Source: Escherichia phage vB-Eco-KMB37
Length of the DNA: 64,000 nt
Sequence record: OR525700
Direction: 5' to 3' (one strand)
Positions 12,529 through 63,834 of this stretch are shown piece after piece (the first letter of the stretch is position 1; each line of letters opens with the position of its first letter). The position numbers and the translations under genes are program-made. The notes beneath the pieces are model-generated. The model had not been told where the DNA came from. It was given only the letters and a program-made list of their open reading frames with translations, and did no database searches.

Positions 12529-14688
12529 ATGAAACAGGCTATTTTTACTGTAACTCGAAATACGAGAGTAAATGCCAGTTCATTCAGCTATAAGACCGTC
12601 GATGGAACGGCGGTCGCTGGTAGAGATTATGTAGCTAAACAGGGAACAGTAACGTTCCCTTCTGATGCAGATTCTGCTACTGTAGTGGTTGATGTATATG
12701 AACGTCCGGCAAACTCTTTAGATCTTTATTTTACTCTTGAGATTACTAGCATAAGTCAAAATAACATGATGATCAATGAAGAAATTCGTTGTGTTATTAC
12801 GACTAATCAATCGAATACGACCCCGCTAACTTGGCCTGTTGTGAAGTCTAGAATGTTTGATCCTAAGTTTTGGACAATAGATTCTCAAGCAACAGAAAGT
12901 TGTTCTATTATCTCTAATGGTGATTCTTTCACAGCAAGAATGGTTAATAGGACAGTGGCTGGTCTTGCTGGGATTATTTGGTCAACTTACGATAAATATG
13001 ATCACAAAGGATTAGGCTACCAAGAACATTCTGACTTAAGTAAAGAGAAACTTTGGTTTAAAATGGAACTTAGTCAAGGTGTTCCTGGATTAAAAGAAGA
13101 AAAATTAATACCATCCTTAACAGTGACACTGAAGGATGAAACAGTTCATTATGTATCTCTAAACTTTTATGCAGAAGAAGTTTCAGAGGATGGTAAAACA
13201 GCAACAATCAAACTAGATTTCTCAAATTTAAAATCTGGGCCAGAAAATGATATTGTTGTTGACACTACACAGATAGATAATATGTTCTTCTCCTTGATCT
13301 CAACGAGGTATCAAGAAATTGAAGATATTATTCCTGTAGACAATGAGGATCTTTCCTTTAAGTTTACCATACTGGAGCCTGATACTGGTTACAGTATGAT
13401 GAATATGGGTAATTTAAATGTTCCAGCACACACCATAAGAATGTGTACATCTTATGATGATATGTATAACCTGACCCCAGAGCGAGTTATTTCTAACACC
13501 TACAGATTAGGTTATAGGGATATGATTAACCACTATAATGGTATGTCACACTATTATCAGTTTAGTTGGGATGCTGGTTCTAATAAATGGGCTTTGAATA
13601 GAACAGAATATTTAAACCCAGCAACAGAAGCATGGTTTGATAATTTCCACGCTAATGCAAAAGCTATGGGCTACACAGTAATGAATTCCTTAAGTTTTGA
13701 ACTTATGAGTACAGTGTGTCCTGTAGAATGGGTACAACATACTTGGAATGATAATCTTGCTGCTACAGGTTATGAGCCACCAAGTTATGTTTTATCTCCT
13801 TCAATTGATGAAGGGATGGATTATTTACAAGGTGTAATAAATAAGATAGCTTCTATATCCGCTGCTAATGATCTTCCGGTTATTATTCAGGTTGGTGAAC
13901 CGTGGTGGTGGTATAACACAGCTACCAATCTACCGTGTATTTATGATTATACAACCAAAGTTGCATTTAATAATGAAACTGGATTGTATGCACAAGATGT
14001 TGGTACAGTTAAAAATTATAAAACTGGTACACCATATGATGAATATTATGCATTCCTATCTAAAACATTAGGACTGCGTGTTGCTAAATTTGCAACAGAT
14101 ACCAGATTAGCATATCCTGGAGCTAAAGTTACATTGTTACCATTTGTGCCATCCATTTTGGGTAATGGTATGATGGAGTTTGTTAACTTCCCTAAAGATT
14201 ATTATATCCCAGAAAACTTTGACTTTTATTGTTCAGAATGTTATGACTGGTTGTTGGAAGGTAAGATGGAAAGATCTTTCGACGCTATCACAATACCCAA
14301 TGAGCAACTAGGTTTTAGTTATGATAAGATACATTATCTTGCAGGGTTTGTTCCAGATGCAACTCTAGCACCATTATATGGCTTTGATCCTGAATCAGAC
14401 TACAGAACATACTTGTGGAAAATGATTATAGGTAATATTGTATTGAATGATCAGAAGTTTGTTGGTTTATATCAATACATATGGGCTTACCCACAAATAA
14501 TGCATGATTCAATAACTGTTCTTAATTCAAAATCCCAAGTGTTTTATATGGGTAATGTGCCTTTGAATTGCTACTTGCAAGATATCACTCTTAAACAGGT
14601 AAATGTTGAGATTGCCACTATAAGTGGAATTACATTAGCCACCAAATCTGGAGAAGATTTAGTAACAACACAAAAATTTTATATATAG
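12529..14688 (+). CDS. structural protein (baseplate or fibre associated)
   Basis: 719 aa ORF; RBS AAGGAAAA upstream; no motif recognised. Confidence 0.45.
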   Translation: MKQAIFTVTRNTRVNASSFSYKTVDGTAVAGRDYVAKQGTVTFPSDADSATVVVDVYERPANSLDLYFTLEITSISQNNMMINEEIRCVITTNQSNTTPLTWPVVKSRMFDPKFWTIDSQATESCSIISNGDSFTARMVNRTVAGLAGIIWSTYDKYDHKGLGYQEHSDLSKEKLWFKMELSQGVPGLKEEKLIPSLTVTLKDETVHYVSLNFYAEEVSEDGKTATIKLDFSNLKSGPENDIVVDTTQIDNMFFSLISTRYQEIEDIIPVDNEDLSFKFTILEPDTGYSMMNMGNLNVPAHTIRMCTSYDDMYNLTPERVISNTYRLGYRDMINHYNGMSHYYQFSWDAGSNKWALNRTEYLNPATEAWFDNFHANAKAMGYTVMNSLSFELMSTVCPVEWVQHTWNDNLAATGYEPPSYVLSPSIDEGMDYLQGVINKIASISAANDLPVIIQVGEPWWWYNTATNLPCIYDYTTKVAFNNETGLYAQDVGTVKNYKTGTPYDEYYAFLSKTLGLRVAKFATDTRLAYPGAKVTLLPFVPSILGNGMMEFVNFPKDYYIPENFDFYCSECYDWLLEGKMERSFDAITIPNEQLGFSYDKIHYLAGFVPDATLAPLYGFDPESDYRTYLWKMIIGNIVLNDQKFVGLYQYIWAYPQIMHDSITVLNSKSQVFYMGNVPLNCYLQDITLKQVNVEIATISGITLATKSGEDLVTTQKFYI

Positions 14689-14696
14689 GAGTAAAA

Positions 14697-15548
14697 ATGT
14701 CAACTACAATTACTAATTTACCCGAAACATCAAAAGTTAATGGTTCTGATTACCTGGTTTTAGACCAATCTGATAAGACTGTTAAAAGCACAGTTTCCAA
14801 CTTTCTTACTGACACTGGGGTGGTTTTAGCCACCCAGTTGAAAGATACAGATGGGGCATCTTTCATCAATACTTCTGACGGTGACTCTGTGCAGGTACAC
14901 CTAGATGCTATTGAGTCTGCTGCCCAAGTAACCACAAATTTGATTAAAGAAACCAATTCTGTAATTCCACCAGACTATAGTCGCCAACTTATTATTGGTG
15001 TTACTGATCGTGCGGGTGAAGCCAGTGCACAAATTCGTGCCGATGCTGGTAAAGGCGAAACTAATCCTATCCCCCAATGTATAGCAACTGACCCGGTAAC
15101 AGGAGAATTCTTTATTACTCGTGGATGGGATGCAATATCTCCTGTGTACGTTCATATTTATGACCGTAATTTTAACTTCCTTAAGGTTGTACGAGCTGGA
15201 GGTGGTTGGGGTGAGGGTATAGTTATCGGCTATGTTAATGGTGAACGTCGTATTGCAGTTAGTCGTGCATCTGCTGGGTATGCTGTTTATTCTTTACCGG
15301 CTACTGAAGACATTACTGGTTTAAATAGTGCAACTCTATTGTTTGAGCAGACTAGTGCTAACCAAGAGGCACAGCTTTCCAGTTATGGTAACTATGTAAC
15401 AATTCGCTGTTCTCATCTTGGTGATGACCGGTATATACGCCGCAGTCTGTATAGTGTGTATGACTTACAAGAATTTCTTACTACACCAGACCCAGTAAGA
15501 AAGAGTTTTATTCATTTCCCGTCTGACCAGATGAGTGGGGGGTATTGA
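14697..15548 (+). CDS. tail fibre protein, N-terminal portion (likely fragment of a split gene)
   Basis: 283 aa; N-terminal anchor-like module (ITNLPETSKVNGSDYLVLDQSDKTVKSTVSNFL); ends inside a G6 tract where the next ORF begins in the +1 frame. Confidence 0.55.
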   Translation: MSTTITNLPETSKVNGSDYLVLDQSDKTVKSTVSNFLTDTGVVLATQLKDTDGASFINTSDGDSVQVHLDAIESAAQVTTNLIKETNSVIPPDYSRQLIIGVTDRAGEASAQIRADAGKGETNPIPQCIATDPVTGEFFITRGWDAISPVYVHIYDRNFNFLKVVRAGGGWGEGIVIGYVNGERRIAVSRASAGYAVYSLPATEDITGLNSATLLFEQTSANQEAQLSSYGNYVTIRCSHLGDDRYIRRSLYSVYDLQEFLTTPDPVRKSFIHFPSDQMSGGY

Positions 15549-16761
15549 TACTAACTTCTTGGTTACTAAGTGTCAGGCAACTTGCCTTAGCCCTCGTGGG
15601 ATGGCTGGTCACAACGGTCAGACTTGGCACACTGTCAATGCTAACAGAGAGCTTCCGGGTTATCGCTTGCGATTCATTGAGGTATCTCATGGTGGTGATG
15701 TAATCACTAACCAAGTGCTGCATCCTAAATATGTGCTCGCTGAATATGCAAACAAAGGTTGGACACGTCCACTTGGTCAACCTTTAGATAATACGGAACC
15801 AGAAGGTATCTGCTACTCAAATGAGTATGGGTATGTCTGGCTTACAGTAATTTCTGAGCGAGTGTTTATTACCGCTCAGTATAATCCTGTACTGGCTGCC
15901 GAGTTGGATACTAATCGTGATTTAGACTTACGTGTGGCAGCTTTGCCACAGAGTAACAACCCAGGTAGTGCAAGATCTGTGTCAGCTAATGCCCCGATAG
16001 ATGATACTTCTGGTACTGCGTTGACTACCCCAGATGAAATTGTGGATATGATGCGTGCACGCCACTTACGTTACTACTCATGCTCACTCCGTAATGGATT
16101 AACTTTTGGTGATGTTTCTTTTACTGGAGACTACAATATGGCTGAGTTTGTATTGGTGGATGGAAACCAGTGTGCTGTCACTATCACCATTGAACGTAGT
16201 AATGTTCACCAGTTCTTCGCCTCTGGTGATACCCCAAGAAGATGGATGTATAGTGCAGTGCAGTATGGAGGTACTACATCTGATCAGGTAACAGGGGGTA
16301 GGACTTCTATGATCCAAATCGCACCAAATAACTTTGGGCAGATCAGGGTAGTTACCGCTGGCACTGGCAATCATACCCCGATGCAGTTTATAAGTAACCA
16401 GACAGCAGCAGTGGGGTCAATCACTATGACCAGCACTGCTACTGCATTCAACACTACATCGGATGAACGTCTTAAAGTGCTGCATGGCAATGTTCCAGAT
16501 GCTTTATCTATTATTGAATCTATGATTAATGACGGTGCAGTCCAGATGGCGGCATTTAAAGCTGATCCAGATAAAATATACCCTATGCTGATTGCCCAAC
16601 GCGTAGCTAAGTCTTGTGACTTTGCTGTAACTAAAGGTGATGGTGAGTATGGTGAAGAAGGATTCATCCCTGATATGGTAGATTACAGTAAACTTGTTCC
16701 ACTTTTGTTTGCTGCCATTATGCAGTTAAAAGCAAAGTTAGATGAGTGTGAAAGTAAGTAA
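15535..16761 (+). CDS. tail fibre protein, C-terminal portion with intramolecular chaperone (peptidase S74-like) domain
   Basis: 408 aa; C-terminal segment SDERLKVLHGNVPDALSIIESM...LVPLLFAAIMQLKAKLDE resembles the auto-cleaving C-terminal chaperone domain of tail fibres and endosialidases; GTG start inside the G tract. Confidence 0.6.
   Translation: MGGIDTNFLVTKCQATCLSPRGMAGHNGQTWHTVNANRELPGYRLRFIEVSHGGDVITNQVLHPKYVLAEYANKGWTRPLGQPLDNTEPEGICYSNEYGYVWLTVISERVFITAQYNPVLAAELDTNRDLDLRVAALPQSNNPGSARSVSANAPIDDTSGTALTTPDEIVDMMRARHLRYYSCSLRNGLTFGDVSFTGDYNMAEFVLVDGNQCAVTITIERSNVHQFFASGDTPRRWMYSAVQYGGTTSDQVTGGRTSMIQIAPNNFGQIRVVTAGTGNHTPMQFISNQTAAVGSITMTSTATAFNTTSDERLKVLHGNVPDALSIIESMINDGAVQMAAFKADPDKIYPMLIAQRVAKSCDFAVTKGDGEYGEEGFIPDMVDYSKLVPLLFAAIMQLKAKLDECESK
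15537..15542 (+). repeat. G6 homopolymer tract at the junction of two tail fibre ORFs
   Basis: GTGGGGGGT at 15535-15543; ORF 14697-15548 and ORF 15535-16761 are offset by +1; removing one G fuses them into one open frame of about 690 codons. Confidence 0.8.
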
Positions 16762-16768
16762 TAGTAAT

Positions 16769-16790
16769 CCCCTCTTCGGAGGGGTTCTTA
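16769..16790 (+). terminator. intrinsic terminator (UUCG tetraloop)
   Basis: CCCCTC-TTCG-GAGGGG followed by TTCTTAG. Confidence 0.6.
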
Positions 16791-16809: not shown

Positions 16810-16959
16810 ATGAACGAGATGTTCTCACAAGGCGGTATTGCCCCAGGTACTACTGCCATTAGTCTTAGTGCTGCTGTACTTGTGCATTCAGCGGGTTCTG
16901 TAGACCTTGGGGAATTAGCTGTATCTTGTGATTTAAAAAGTAATGAGAACGCACCATGA
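16810..16959 (+). CDS. small hypothetical protein (49 aa)
   Basis: ATG preceded by AAAGAGG RBS; stop overlaps the ATG of the next gene (ATGA); not in the supplied ORF track because under 60 aa. Confidence 0.4.
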   Translation: MNEMFSQGGIAPGTTAISLSAAVLVHSAGSVDLGELAVSCDLKSNENAP

Positions 16960-17201
16960 GAAAATTTTTAATAGGTATGTTTTGTACATATCCTGATAAT
17001 AAAGTCAGTTCTACTAAAGTTTGGAATGCTATTGGTATGATTGTTATGTCCAGTATGTTTATTTATTTGGGAATTGATAAAGAAATTCCTGAATGGATGG
17101 GCTGGGCTTTTGTTTTTATGATCACACCATCCAGACTAATGAAGAATTTAATAGATTTACGTTGGGGCAGATCACCTGCCCCTGATAAGGAGGATAACTA
17201 A
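16956..17201 (+). CDS. small membrane protein
   Basis: 81 aa with two hydrophobic segments; translationally coupled to neighbours. Confidence 0.45.
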   Translation: MRKFLIGMFCTYPDNKVSSTKVWNAIGMIVMSSMFIYLGIDKEIPEWMGWAFVFMITPSRLMKNLIDLRWGRSPAPDKEDN

Positions 17202-18688
17202 TGGCAGATTATGGTTTAACAGATGCTGGTTTTGTAATTCCAACGTTTGATGATATTTTAAATAATTATATGACAGCATTGAAAAACACTTTCGGTGCAG
17301 ATACAGCTACATCTGAAGATACTGTCTTTGGTCAACTGTTTCGTATTATTGCATATACAGATTACACCCTTTGGGAAGGTATGCAAGGTGTTTACAATAC
17401 CCAAACCTTAGATGGTGCAGAAGGTATTTACCTTGATGAAATCTTCTCTAAAAGAGGTTTTTATCGTAAAGCTGCTTCTGCTGGTAGTGGTTATGCTTAT
17501 GTTAAATCTAACAATAAGGCAGCTTGGACTTATGAACTAAGCACAGATGTTTATTTTAATGCCGATAACGATTTGACATATTATGTCAGTGCACCAACAA
17601 TGTTGAATGCTAAGATTGGAGCATATACCATTTCTAAAGCAAACGCAACAGCTTCTGGTGAAACTTCTATTACTTTCTACATTCAAAGTGCTATTGATGG
17701 TGGTCTTAACAGTAAAACACTAAGTCCTAGCAATACAAACTTTATTTTAGATCTCACGAATTTCATTAAAGCTAACGTATCAACAACAGATCGTGCTTTA
17801 GTATGGAATGATGCTAGTAATGTTTATATGGGTTATAATCCAGAAGATAATGTTAACCCAATAGGTCTAGTAACACCAGTGAAATTTTACGCATCTATTG
17901 CAATTGGTACAAAATGGAGTGAAATTCCAGTTACGTGTTCAGACGTTGGTTATAATCCAGTAGGTACAGAAAGTATTACAGGTATTTCTTCAACGTTTAC
18001 AGGTTTTTTAGATACAGGTAACTTCTATCCATTCTCTCCAGGTACGGATGTTGAAACAGATGCAGAATTCCGCTCTCGTTTCAATGATAATATGGATGAA
18101 GCTAATGCTGCTACTCGTGCTGCTATTGTTAAAGCCCTGCTACTGACAGATGGTGTGACAAAGGTTAAGATTTATGATAACCCTACATTACATGATCAGG
18201 AACATGCTCCAGCTATGACATTCCAGACTATTGTGTATGGTGGTACAGCAGAAGAAGTTGCACAGGTTATTTATAATACTAAGCCTATTAACACCCTAAC
18301 CTATGGTACAACAGCAATTACTATCGTAACAGAAGATGGTGGTCAAGAAGTAATTCGTTTTTCTCCTGGTGACAATGCTGAATATTCACTTAAACTAGTA
18401 TATCAAACTGGCAATGGTAGTGTGTTAAGTACAACAGAAAGAGAAAATATTGTTTCTGCTCTTTCAAATCTACAGGCTTATTTTGAGTTAGGGTCAACAG
18501 TAACTAACGATCAGATAAAAGGTGTAATTTATTCTGCACTTGCGTTCGGACGCTTGACTTCTCTCCGTGTTTATGTTAAACTTAATACTGAGGATGACAG
18601 TAAATATAATGAGGGAGATATCACTCCAGCGTACAATGTTGTACCATCCTTTGACCTTGATAATATTTCCTACGAGTACGGAGTCTAA
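17201..18688 (+). CDS. baseplate J-like protein
   Basis: 495 aa; N-terminal region (GLTDAGFVIPTFDDILNNYMTALKNTFGADT...FGQLFRIIAYTDYTLWEG) typical of baseplate J/gp6-like proteins; followed by gpI-like and fibre genes. Confidence 0.55.
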   Translation: MADYGLTDAGFVIPTFDDILNNYMTALKNTFGADTATSEDTVFGQLFRIIAYTDYTLWEGMQGVYNTQTLDGAEGIYLDEIFSKRGFYRKAASAGSGYAYVKSNNKAAWTYELSTDVYFNADNDLTYYVSAPTMLNAKIGAYTISKANATASGETSITFYIQSAIDGGLNSKTLSPSNTNFILDLTNFIKANVSTTDRALVWNDASNVYMGYNPEDNVNPIGLVTPVKFYASIAIGTKWSEIPVTCSDVGYNPVGTESITGISSTFTGFLDTGNFYPFSPGTDVETDAEFRSRFNDNMDEANAATRAAIVKALLLTDGVTKVKIYDNPTLHDQEHAPAMTFQTIVYGGTAEEVAQVIYNTKPINTLTYGTTAITIVTEDGGQEVIRFSPGDNAEYSLKLVYQTGNGSVLSTTERENIVSALSNLQAYFELGSTVTNDQIKGVIYSALAFGRLTSLRVYVKLNTEDDSKYNEGDITPAYNVVPSFDLDNISYEYGV

Positions 18689-42656: not shown

Positions 42657-42677
42657 TATGATTTATTACTTGACGTA

Positions 42678-58199: not shown

Positions 58200-58210
58200 T
58201 TTAACCCCCC

Positions 58211-63669: not shown

Positions 63670-63834
63670 AGTATTCTCCTATACAGTAATATACTCTGTT
63701 CCTGCCCCCTCCATGAGTGACAGGAACAATATCTATAGAGAATACTAACTCGCTTCGCTCGTCACCTTTCAGGTTTAGGGTAGCATGTTTTTCTGAAAAA
63801 GTCAATACTCTCCACAAAACTTTACAAAATACTT

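Follow-up and report, generated by a model that had tools for sequence, protein, structure and literature searches.

The closest described counterpart of the tailspike gene analyzed here is gp143 of phage phi92, the endosialidase EndoN92. The two have in common their genomic position, an N-terminal anchor of about 55 amino acids, an exchangeable receptor-binding body, and a C-terminal chaperone-type domain of the self-cleaving kind. For the G homopolymer at which the reading frame of our gene is interrupted, other described systems lend themselves to comparison. Programmed +1 frameshifting, known from the prfB gene of E. coli and from structural genes of the Listeria phage PSA, takes place at conserved sites in which a slippery codon adjoins a stop or a rare codon; in prfB, an upstream Shine-Dalgarno (SD) sequence is present as well. 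Contingency loci usually possess eight or more G's, and the polyG tracts of Campylobacter phages are reportedly long, conserved, and demonstrably hypermutable. In the Fletchervirus phages of Campylobacter, phase variation of receptor-binding proteins (RBPs) via polyG tracts has been described (Sorensen et al., 2021, as cited in PMC10579305 and PMC10877375), and there, as in the gene studied here, a G homopolymer in a phage RBP gene decides whether the full protein is made.

The window, the 64-kb stretch of DNA that we analyzed from Escherichia phage vB-Eco-KMB37 (KMB37; OR525700), is assigned by its sequence to the phi92-like genus Justusliebigvirus and is 98% identical to phage alia; on the same grounds, its broken tailspike locus is equated with the exchangeable slot of phi92 gp143. 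The upstream neighbor (12529-14688) encodes a gp142-like, non-contractile-tail-sheath-like protein with NCTSP domains, and the downstream neighbor (17201-18688) encodes a Baseplate_J protein. The tailspike gene is flanked on one side by the gp142-like NCTSP gene and on the other by the gp144/gp145 baseplate genes, the same gene order that is found in phi92, UAB_1, and alia. The features of the tailspike locus described below are carried by the plus strand. An SD sequence read from the DNA, AGGAG (14687-14691), lies 6 nt upstream of the ATG start codon of the tailspike gene, and the calculated energy of its duplex with the anti-SD sequence (-6.8 kcal/mol) is close to the median found for structural genes of the same phage (-6.5 kcal/mol). 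Just 3' of the stop codon, a GC-rich, terminator-like hairpin (CCCCTCTTCGGAGGGG; 16769-16784) forms the conserved downstream boundary of the exchangeable module, and homology to alia picks up again at position 16767. A conserved terminator motif 3' of RBP genes has been described (PMC10408124).

At its N-terminus, the spike carries the conserved virion-anchor module of about 55 amino acids (14697-14861) that is typical for proteins encoded in the phi92 gp143 slot and that corresponds to the tail protein family PHROG 23437. This anchor (MSTTITNLPETSKVNGSDYLVLDQ...) is 91-98% identical over the first 50-57 or so residues (7-8% of the query) to the tailspikes of phAPEC8-type phages (including P0058), ESCO8, and BME3. 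The anchor is also matched, in all cases through the N-terminal 7-12%, by more than 70 tailspikes of the Stephanstirmvirinae whose bodies are unrelated.

The remainder of the protein was assessed with an AF2 model of P0001, a homolog of 686 amino acids that possesses the same phi92-like anchor and the same downstream genes (locus L001) and that, like P0002-P0012, reads through the junction at which the KMB37 gene is interrupted. The model represents a monomer and was computed from a 43-sequence alignment (pLDDT 83); a 13-sequence alignment yielded an unusable model (pLDDT 52). As judged from this model, the intact product of about 687 amino acids would normally consist of an N-terminal baseplate anchor, a helical stem, a five-bladed β-propeller, a β tower, and a C-terminal, putatively self-cleaving chaperone. 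Strands are found at P0001 residues 96-394, and the predicted receptor-binding propeller, for which Foldseek searches provide further evidence, spans positions 14982-15927 of the window, with the frameshift situated inside blade 4. The junction residues 282-285 lie in a low-pLDDT loop between two strands (268-273 and 292-297). The break falls inside a propeller blade, and neither half should be able to fold alone.

The best Foldseek matches of the model were the RBPs of the Staphylococcus phages phi11 (Gp45) and 80alpha (PDB 5efv, 6v8i; E-values of 4e-12 to 6e-12), followed by generic propellers. These proteins may resemble the modeled spike in their layout of a stem, a five-bladed propeller platform, and a tower, but the sequence identity is just 12-13%, the global TM score amounts to only 0.29-0.34, and they are baseplate proteins of siphoviruses infecting Gram-positive hosts. 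We know of no C-terminal S74 chaperone in either of them. A phmmer search of the PDB with the whole spike returned no match. The spike differs from EndoN92 as well: a sialidase and a β-helix form the body of EndoN92, whereas an unrelated five-bladed propeller and a tower are present here; the chaperone domain is of another, shorter subtype (BLASTP against the EndoN92 C-terminal domain was not significant, and hhalign aligned 23 columns); and the KMB37 gene is frameshifted. The propeller-type receptor-binding module is rare and uncharacterized: a set of 5.8 billion proteins contains 12 protein clusters with it, and about 50,000 sequenced phages lack it. It occurs on at least four anchors: the phi92-like type, the Tail_spike_N type, that of an SU10/N4-like podophage, and the N-terminus of P0008, which represents a fourth kind. 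The gene for P0008 lies on an E. coli contig of 4.9 Mb, presumably within a prophage.

The C-terminal domain (16459-16758; SDERLK...LIAQRV...VDYSKLVPLL, followed by a coiled coil) had been interpreted in the initial annotation as an intramolecular chaperone, and family-profile, fold, and PHROG matches bear this out, classifying it as a divergent member of Peptidase_S74. Through this domain, the family profile reaches about 30,000 proteins; PF13884 scored above cut-off in 8 of 10 sampled profile matches, and at the matched stretch in seven of the eight matches that were confined to the C-terminal domain. Fold matches in BFVD are named "intramolecular chaperone auto-processing domain", and the C-termini of PHROG tail fibers match at E-values of 5e-9 to 1e-7. 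Like the S74 domains of the K1F endosialidase (CIMCD) and of the L-shaped tail fiber pb1 of T5, the domain is C-terminal, opens with an S-D-x-R-x-K motif in which Ser and Lys are spaced five residues apart, and continues with helices and a terminal coiled coil; profile homology extends to thousands of S74-bearing tail fibers. The motif SDERLK (16459-16476) would provide the putative Ser-Lys dyad. Among the 13 aligned sequences, both D588 and K592 are invariant, with S587 nearly invariant; when 43 sequences are aligned, conservation of S587 and D588 is at least 90%. Unlike these established S74 domains, the spike domain obtained no PF13884 score in direct Pfam searches with the 126-amino-acid C-terminus, ORF2, or P0001, even at E ≤ 10, and its cleavage is to be regarded as putative. 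Compared directly by hhalign with endosialidase-type C-terminal domains, it gave a weak alignment (52%, 23 columns), and when the PDB was searched with the domain by phmmer, only spurious matches to PPR repeats were obtained.

In KMB37, this single architecture is distributed over two reading frames. ORF1 (14697-15548) starts with ATG, encodes 283 amino acids, aligns to residues 1-282 of P0001, and ends with Y-TGA two codons past a G-run. ORF2 (15535-16761) comprises 408 codons when counted from a GTG; it encodes the remaining part of the propeller, the β tower, and the chaperone domain, and is 95% identical to P0002 across this region. The initial annotation had described the two ORFs as meeting in a G6 run (15537-15542) with an offset of +1, and all of this was confirmed from the DNA: ORF2 is shifted by +1 against ORF1, the overlap of 11 nt surrounds the run, and the run, which homologs do not possess, holds one extra, frame-shifting G. 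The first ORF had been viewed as the anchor module; an anchor it does contain, but in addition the helical stem and the first three-and-a-fraction blades of the propeller. Because the ORF2 frame is closed by a TGA at 15532-15534 and ORF1 terminates at the TGA at 15546-15548, the frame change joining the two must sit within 15535-15545, which is essentially the G-run. Deletion of one G yields a continuous ORF of 687 codons, in good agreement with the earlier estimate of about 690; it reads ...DQMSGGIDTNF... across the junction (junction peptide ...FIHFPSDQMSGGIDTNFLVTK). Only two runs of G or C of at least six nucleotides are present in the 64 kb (G6 at 15537-15542 and C6 at 58205-58210), so that it is not by chance that the junction falls on such a run.

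Comparison with homologs supports the earlier proposal that ORF1 and ORF2 are parts of one polypeptide. All 12 protein homologs that cover the junction are single polypeptides with the sequence ...FPSDQMSGGIDTNF..., the predicted DQMSGGIDTNF matches every close homolog, and P0014, a relative with 30% identity, is likewise uninterrupted; the suggested comparison with related fibers thus returned the fused form in each case. Most of the full-length proteins among 29 more distant relatives that match the body at E ≤ 1e-30 do so in one junction-spanning stretch. The G-run is found in none of the seven homologous DNAs, each of which is a contiguous ORF with AGT GGT GGT ATT, AGC GGT GGC ATC, AGC GGC GGT GTT, or AGC AGC GGA CAA at the site; because all seven use GGT/GGC (or AGC GGA) codons, the tract is not conserved. 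Sequence and profile searches of the 5.8-billion-protein set detected no split gene, with the profile returning only the same 12 clusters, and the exact 283-amino-acid ORF1 product has no match on record. The DNA pattern of the junction, with any tract length allowed, was not present in IMG/VR or JGI metagenome contigs, and hence no relative with G5 or G6 was found there. The DNA of the spike body had no match in 50,697 phage records (near and distant search modes) or in complete E. coli genomes; tblastn with the tailspike matched nothing beyond the N-terminal anchor, and a peptide-pattern scan of IMG/VR returned distant relatives and chaperone-domain-only matches, nothing else. A literature search for a reported frameshift in phi92-like tailspikes yielded nothing relevant.

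Taken by itself, ORF2 is without decay: changes specific to the window are nonsynonymous and synonymous at a ratio of 12:36 downstream and 3:7 upstream of the break, and further stop codons are missing. The interruption is best read as an ordinary frameshift, caused either by a recent mutation or by a sequence error, and not as a built-in switch. An error in the consensus, which would have over-called by one base a true G5 (AGT GGG GGT ATT) in an intact gene, is a possibility to be taken seriously, although we consider it distinctly the less probable of these two causes. The lesion alters by 1 nt the length of the gene's longest G-run, which is a classic type of error; the perfect preservation of ORF2, with no relaxed selection, is what one expects of an intact gene; and no other assembly (public proteins, IMG/VR, JGI metagenomes) carries the split form. 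Against such an error speaks the otherwise clean record of the sequence, on account of which the assembly error raised in the initial annotation, while possible, is disfavored. In the alignment with alia, which covers about 62 kb, no indel other than the additional G in the tailspike gene breaks a reading frame, and 55 of 62 homopolymers of at least six nucleotides have the same length in both phages. The comparison comprises 15 indel positions; the six isolated 1-nt homopolymer indels all lie between genes, and the indels inside genes are in-frame on balance. The two run-length differences that we tested (C6 at 58205 and C5 at 63705) recur in independent genomes. This is the pattern of variation filtered by selection rather than of random error, and a generally homopolymer-noisy assembly was rejected on these grounds; a platform noisy enough to miscall G5 should also have erred at some of the intragenic A/T runs, which number roughly 60.

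The remaining explanations attribute a function to the split. In an evolved contingency switch, the G-tract would be retained so that slipped-strand mispairing toggles the RBP in the phage population; an in-frame homopolymer whose length sets the frame (G6 off, G5 in-frame), a full restoration of the gene by reversion from G6 to G5, and the documented polyG-dependent expression of phage RBPs fit this proposal. But the tract of KMB37 is missing from seven of seven homologous DNAs and is hence no conserved feature, a G6 is short for a hypermutable tract, other in-frame G5/G6 runs in homologs show no sign of a role, and the occurrence of just two G/C runs of this length in 64 kb reveals no tendency of KMB37 toward such tracts. 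In its length of 6 nt, its restriction to this one genome, and its absence from homologs, it differs from the Fletchervirus system; the slipped-strand switch put forward in the initial annotation is therefore not supported, and we regard it as quite improbable. Marginally better, though still improbable, are the chances of a young but working switch, in which G5 (on) and G6 (off, with an anchor-only plug) would coexist and interconvert by polymerase slippage. Programmed ribosomal frameshifting, with the ribosome slipping by +1 at the first GGG or by -2 at the second, would provide the full-length spike alongside a short protein with only the anchor, at a set ratio. Judged by its sequence, GGG GGG would permit perfect re-pairing of tRNA-Gly in both directions, with either shift leading into the ORF2 frame; as at the prfB and PSA sites, a +1 change is what is needed. 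Moreover, the +1 product would be identical to the SGGID of the homologs, and the G-run is SD-like. Yet all homologs are unshifted single ORFs without a slippery run, the next 100 nt are no more stably folded than shuffled controls (z = -0.69), the 0-frame stop is placed one codon past the run instead of adjoining the slip codon, and no in-frame rare or stop codon occupies the A-site at the run. The pairing of a slippery codon with an adjacent stop or rare codon, as in prfB and PSA, and the upstream SD sequence of prfB are neither conserved nor present in KMB37, and with no conserved slippery run and no stimulatory RNA structure, the recoding that had also been suggested appears very unlikely. 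The same low likelihood applies to two genuine genes whose products would assemble non-covalently into a working spike; translation of ORF2 would then begin either at GTG 15535, by termination-reinitiation, or at TTG 15559, with the G-run serving as SD. The 11-nt stop/start overlap is compatible with translational coupling, the SD-like run has a TTG 16 nt downstream, and ORF2 is intact. However, the split lies inside a propeller blade, no homolog is split, no such form exists among the 5.8 billion proteins searched, and the anti-SD energies of GTG 15535 (+0.4 kcal/mol) and ATG 15601 (+1.3 kcal/mol) led us to reject a ribosome-binding site of its own for ORF2 at either start. No promoter-like site on the plus strand was found near ORF2.

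With a probability of roughly 0.58, we favor the view that a real +1G frameshift has very recently inactivated an accessory tailspike that the phage can do without, and that slippage could revert it; a plain inactivating mutation of this kind was absent from the options (switch, recoding, assembly error) considered in the initial annotation. We infer that the mutation is real and not a consensus error, and that the function of the spike has been lost. A synonymous T-to-G change in the GGT GGT codons would have created the G-run, and slippage would then have added one G, resulting in GGG GGG plus one extra base; the frame would shift inside the propeller blade, and translation would terminate two codons later. 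The state of KMB37 is two steps away from the sampled homologs, a T-to-G change followed by the gain of a G, and an intermediate with G5 was not seen. The product of 283 amino acids keeps the anchor, but half of the propeller is lost, as is the chaperone on which folding of the trimer depends; the spike is therefore expected to be non-functional. Such a loss would be tolerated because phi92-like phages carry several other spikes and fibers and would not need the gp143-slot spike on many hosts, and by analogy the spike gene is probably dispensable on the host of KMB37. In phage ESCO9, which was grown on DH5alpha, the gp143 slot is reduced to an 82-amino-acid remnant. For Justusliebigvirus, a multivalent "Swiss army knife" type of adsorption and NGR-glycan-mediated infection have been reported (PMC11984140, PMC11990801). 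The full protein might be restored at low frequency, either by a change from G6 to G5 in the DNA or by rare +1 or -2 ribosomal slips on GGG GGG; this reversibility would be a by-product of the sequence and not an evolved device.

If the young G6 switch were true, it would represent bet-hedging by a multivalent phi92-like coliphage over one of its RBPs, and would give the polyG system of Campylobacter phages an E. coli-phage equivalent, seen as it first arises. With a recent loss-of-function frameshift as the preferred reading, the appropriate annotation of the locus is a single disrupted tailspike gene, given either as a pseudogene or with a corrected sequence, and not two proteins or a recoding site, and for host-range prediction KMB37 should be treated as a phage that probably lacks one of its spikes. 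The frameshift itself matters little; the more useful by-product of its analysis is the spike module, and the receptor of the propeller would be worth testing with the intact homologs.

ORF1 (14697-15548, + strand; 283 aa) begins with an ATG 8 nt past the stop codon of the gene upstream and is preceded by an AGGAG Shine-Dalgarno sequence (14687-14691, + strand), while ORF2 (15535-16761, + strand; 408 codons counted from a GTG) lies in the +1 frame relative to it. Because the ORF2 frame is blocked directly upstream by a TGA (15532-15534) and ORF1 is terminated by another (15546-15548), the two frames can be joined only within the 11 nt that hold a GGGGGG run (15537-15542, + strand). A re-reading of the sequence confirmed the coordinates, the G6 run and the offset reported in the initial annotation, and its expectation of a single frame of about 690 codons upon loss of one G was borne out by a 687-codon ORF with ...FPSDQMSGGIDTNFLVTK... 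at the junction. The window holds only two G/C runs of at least six bases, so chance does not explain why one of them lies exactly at the junction. The other one is a C6 run (58205-58210) just 3' of the stop codon of a UvrD-type helicase gene on the minus strand.

That the two ORFs normally constitute one polypeptide had been proposed before, and the homologues checked are indeed fused and read through the junction. The repaired protein, in which ORF1 and ORF2 are joined by removal of one G, was compared with 5.8 billion proteins; 12 clusters cover the junction (46-95% identity), the remaining matches being restricted to the N-terminal anchor. These homologues (P0001-P0012) are all continuous over the junction, where they possess ...FPSDQMSGGIDTNF... 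or a variant thereof. P0001 (686 aa, 90% identity, 100% coverage) has the same phi92-type anchor, and its locus carries the same small genes downstream as the window; P0002 and P0003 possess a Tail_spike_N anchor, P0004-P0006 are adjoined by SU10/N4-like podophage genes, and P0008 is encoded on a 4.9-Mb E. coli contig, presumably by a prophage. The alignment is also unbroken across the site in P0014, a relative with a 30% identical body, a phi92 anchor and a canonical Peptidase_S74 domain. When 1.84 billion representatives were scanned exhaustively with HMMER, 29 proteins scored at E<=1e-30, and most of the full-length matches align the body in one piece over the junction.

At the DNA level, the junction was compared in seven homologues. 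It reads AGT GGT GGT ATT in three of them, AGC GGT GGC ATC in two, and AGC GGC GGT GTT and AGC AGC GGA CAA in one each; a G-run longer than two was found at the junction in none of the seven. Compared with the commonest form, the window (AGT GGG GGG T ATT) has GG in place of one T; a synonymous GGT-to-GGG change would create a G5 run, to which one additional G would have been added. Given the lack of a G-run in these homologue DNAs, the tract is private to the window's genome, and this is the main argument against both a programmed frameshift and an evolved contingency tract.

By its sequence, the window belongs to Justusliebigvirus (phi92-like, Stephanstirmvirinae); positions 17000-41000 align with Escherichia phage alia in one unbroken piece at 98.2% identity. 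The split gene is flanked by a gene with non-contractile tail sheath protein domains (12529-14688) and by a Baseplate_J gene (17201-18688), an order that matches gp142, gp143, gp144 and gp145 of phi92 and is also found in UAB_1 and alia. This conserved order places the split gene in the gp143 slot, which in phi92 is occupied by an endosialidase tailspike that has an intramolecular chaperone at its C-terminus. Similarity to relatives at the nucleotide level is limited to the first ~150 nt of the tailspike gene and returns at 16767, just past the stop codon and next to a conserved hairpin (16769-16784). This is the usual layout in which an exchangeable body lies between a conserved anchor and a conserved 3' hairpin (compare PMC10408124). 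Two small overlapping ORFs follow (16810-16959, 49 aa; 16956-17201, 81 aa); they are conserved in alia, UAB_1 and the P0001 locus and are variously annotated as 'tail protein', 'membrane protein' or 'baseplate J-like'. Three records labelled as Campylobacter jejuni phages (MG065650 'Campylobacter phage B15', MG065639 A150 and MG065645 A145; genomes of ~146-151 kb) are 91-99% identical to the phi92-like backbone of the window over the matched stretches; they look like records with a wrong host label or from contaminated preparations.

The C-terminal SDERLK domain of ORF2 had been ascribed to an intramolecular chaperone. Pfam gave no match to it even at E<=10, BLASTP revealed no significant similarity to the phi92 chaperone, and the local hhalign alignment with endosialidase-type chaperone domains was confined to 23 columns around the motif (probability 52%). 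Nearly all of the roughly 30,000 proteins picked up by the family profile match it through this domain; Peptidase_S74 scores above the Pfam cut-off in 8/10 sampled matches, and in seven sampled proteins that match by the C-terminal domain only it lies inside the matched stretch. The very C-terminal ends of PHROG tail-fibre families align to the domain (best E 5e-9), matching BFVD structures are mostly labelled 'intramolecular chaperone auto-processing domain', and in the S-x4-K dyad of the family alignment D and K are invariant and S nearly so. On this profile, PHROG, BFVD and dyad evidence, we accept the domain as a putative, divergent member of the intramolecular chaperone auto-processing class.

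AlphaFold with 13 sequences gave an unusable model (pLDDT 52); for P0001, a 43-sequence alignment that included distant relatives raised pLDDT to 83. The model comprises a disordered N-terminus (residues 1-41), helices (30-87), twenty beta strands forming five four-stranded blades (96-394), a beta 'tower' (426-585) and C-terminal helices (601-685). The top Foldseek matches in the PDB are the Staphylococcus phage receptor-binding proteins of phi11 (5efv) and 80alpha (6v8i), with E about 5e-12 at a global TM of only about 0.3, followed by generic beta-propellers. Junction residues 282-285 lie in the fourth blade, in a loop of low confidence that connects strands 268-273 and 292-297, so that ORF1 would encode about three and a quarter blades in addition to the anchor and the stem. 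ORF2 would provide the rest of the propeller, the tower and the chaperone, and neither product is predicted to be a complete domain. The modeled body (14982-16458) is a rare module of five-bladed beta-propeller plus tower: it was not found in 50,697 phage records or in complete E. coli genomes, and was represented by only 12 clusters among the 5.8 billion proteins (P0001-P0012; loci L001-L003 and L007-L010). It is attached to four different N-termini: the phi92-like one, Tail_spike_N, that of the homologues beside SU10/N4-like podophage genes, and that of P0008. This putative receptor-binding module of the propeller type is shared by horizontal transfer between phages that differ widely.

Assembly reliability was gauged indirectly, through indels relative to alia. 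The aligned ~62 kb are 98% identical and contain 15 indel positions. The six isolated sites at which a run differs by a single base (6783, 16785, 41992, 58205, 60427 and 63705) are all intergenic, whereas random consensus errors would mostly hit genes, the genome being mostly coding. Within genes, the indels consist of a 12-nt in-frame insertion and of two clusters whose members compensate one another, so that the frame is kept; the insertion (42664-42675; TATTACTTGACG beside TATTACTCGA) looks like an imperfect tandem duplication. C6 at 58205 and C5 at 63705 are each one base longer than in alia. Most relatives have C5 at the former site, and its C6 length is common to at least five independent genomes (PD114, ZYD, Eryne, J-01 and VEcB), and is therefore a real intergenic polymorphism; the C5 length at 63705 recurs in ECGD1 and UAB_1. 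Among runs of at least six bases, 55/62 equal alia in length, the others being substitutions or intergenic variants. The tailspike G6 is thus the sole frame-breaking indel of the window in an otherwise reliable assembly, which favors a real lesion over a one-base consensus error in an intact gene. ORF2 has no further stops, and the ratio of nonsynonymous to synonymous window-specific changes is 12:36 downstream of the break and 3:7 upstream. ORF2 shows no decay; the lesion, if real, is hence very recent, but an intact ORF2 also fits an artefact. General homopolymer noise can be dropped as a source of the suspected assembly error; overall, we rate a real lesion about twice as likely as an artefact. 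The window-specific substitutions cluster at ~15715-16065 (tailspike residues 340-456) and are mostly synonymous, this segment holding 36/36 synonymous and 11/12 nonsynonymous changes downstream of the break. Compared block by block, the gene is a mosaic in its identity to the homologues (locus L002 is nearest over the 3' end and L001 over the anchor), and the segment may be a recombinant one from an unsampled lineage.

Shine-Dalgarno sequences are strong in the structural genes of this phage (anti-SD duplex, median -6.5 kcal/mol); GTG 15535 (+0.4 kcal/mol) and ATG 15601 (+1.3 kcal/mol) lack one, and no promoter-like site was found on the + strand upstream of ORF2. Only the G-run itself resembles an SD (about -6 to -7 kcal/mol against the anti-SD), and an in-frame TTG (15559) lies 16 nt downstream of it; this region (15537-15561) could possibly act as a weak internal start for an N-terminally truncated product. 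On GGG GGG, tRNA-Gly can pair again if it slips by +1 from the first codon, which yields SGGID as in the homologues, or by -2 from the second, which yields SGGGID; low-level leakiness is therefore plausible. Programmed frameshifting, as also envisaged in the initial annotation, is characterized by conservation and a stimulator; here the run is private, the 100 nt downstream fold no better than shuffled sequence (z = -0.69), and nothing points to efficient, selected recoding. With the polyG phase variation of Campylobacter phages (cited in PMC10579305) the only likeness is that a G-run sets the frame. The window's G-tract is not conserved, its absence from 7/7 homologue DNAs speaking against the evolved phase-variable switch once suggested. 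A G6 run is also shorter than the tracts usual in contingency loci. That it represents a nascent reversible on/off switch is quite improbable; in its workings the locus resembles any receptor-binding gene of a phage that is shifted out of frame at a homopolymer.

A genuine loss of this spike would be tolerable: in this genus, several tailspikes and fibres are produced side by side, and K-12 can be infected by way of other receptors (PMC11984140, PMC11990801). In Escherichia phage vB_EcoM_ESCO9 (OM386654), propagated on DH5alpha, the slot holds an 82-aa remnant (L012:2798-3046) that keeps anchor residues 1-46 and then runs on out of frame, and the following small gene is partly deleted as well; hence there are hosts on which the slot is dispensable. 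On the sequence evidence, we read the locus as a single disrupted tailspike gene in the gp143 slot, and the annotation should show it as such; the predicted propeller spike module would be its sole mildly novel element.
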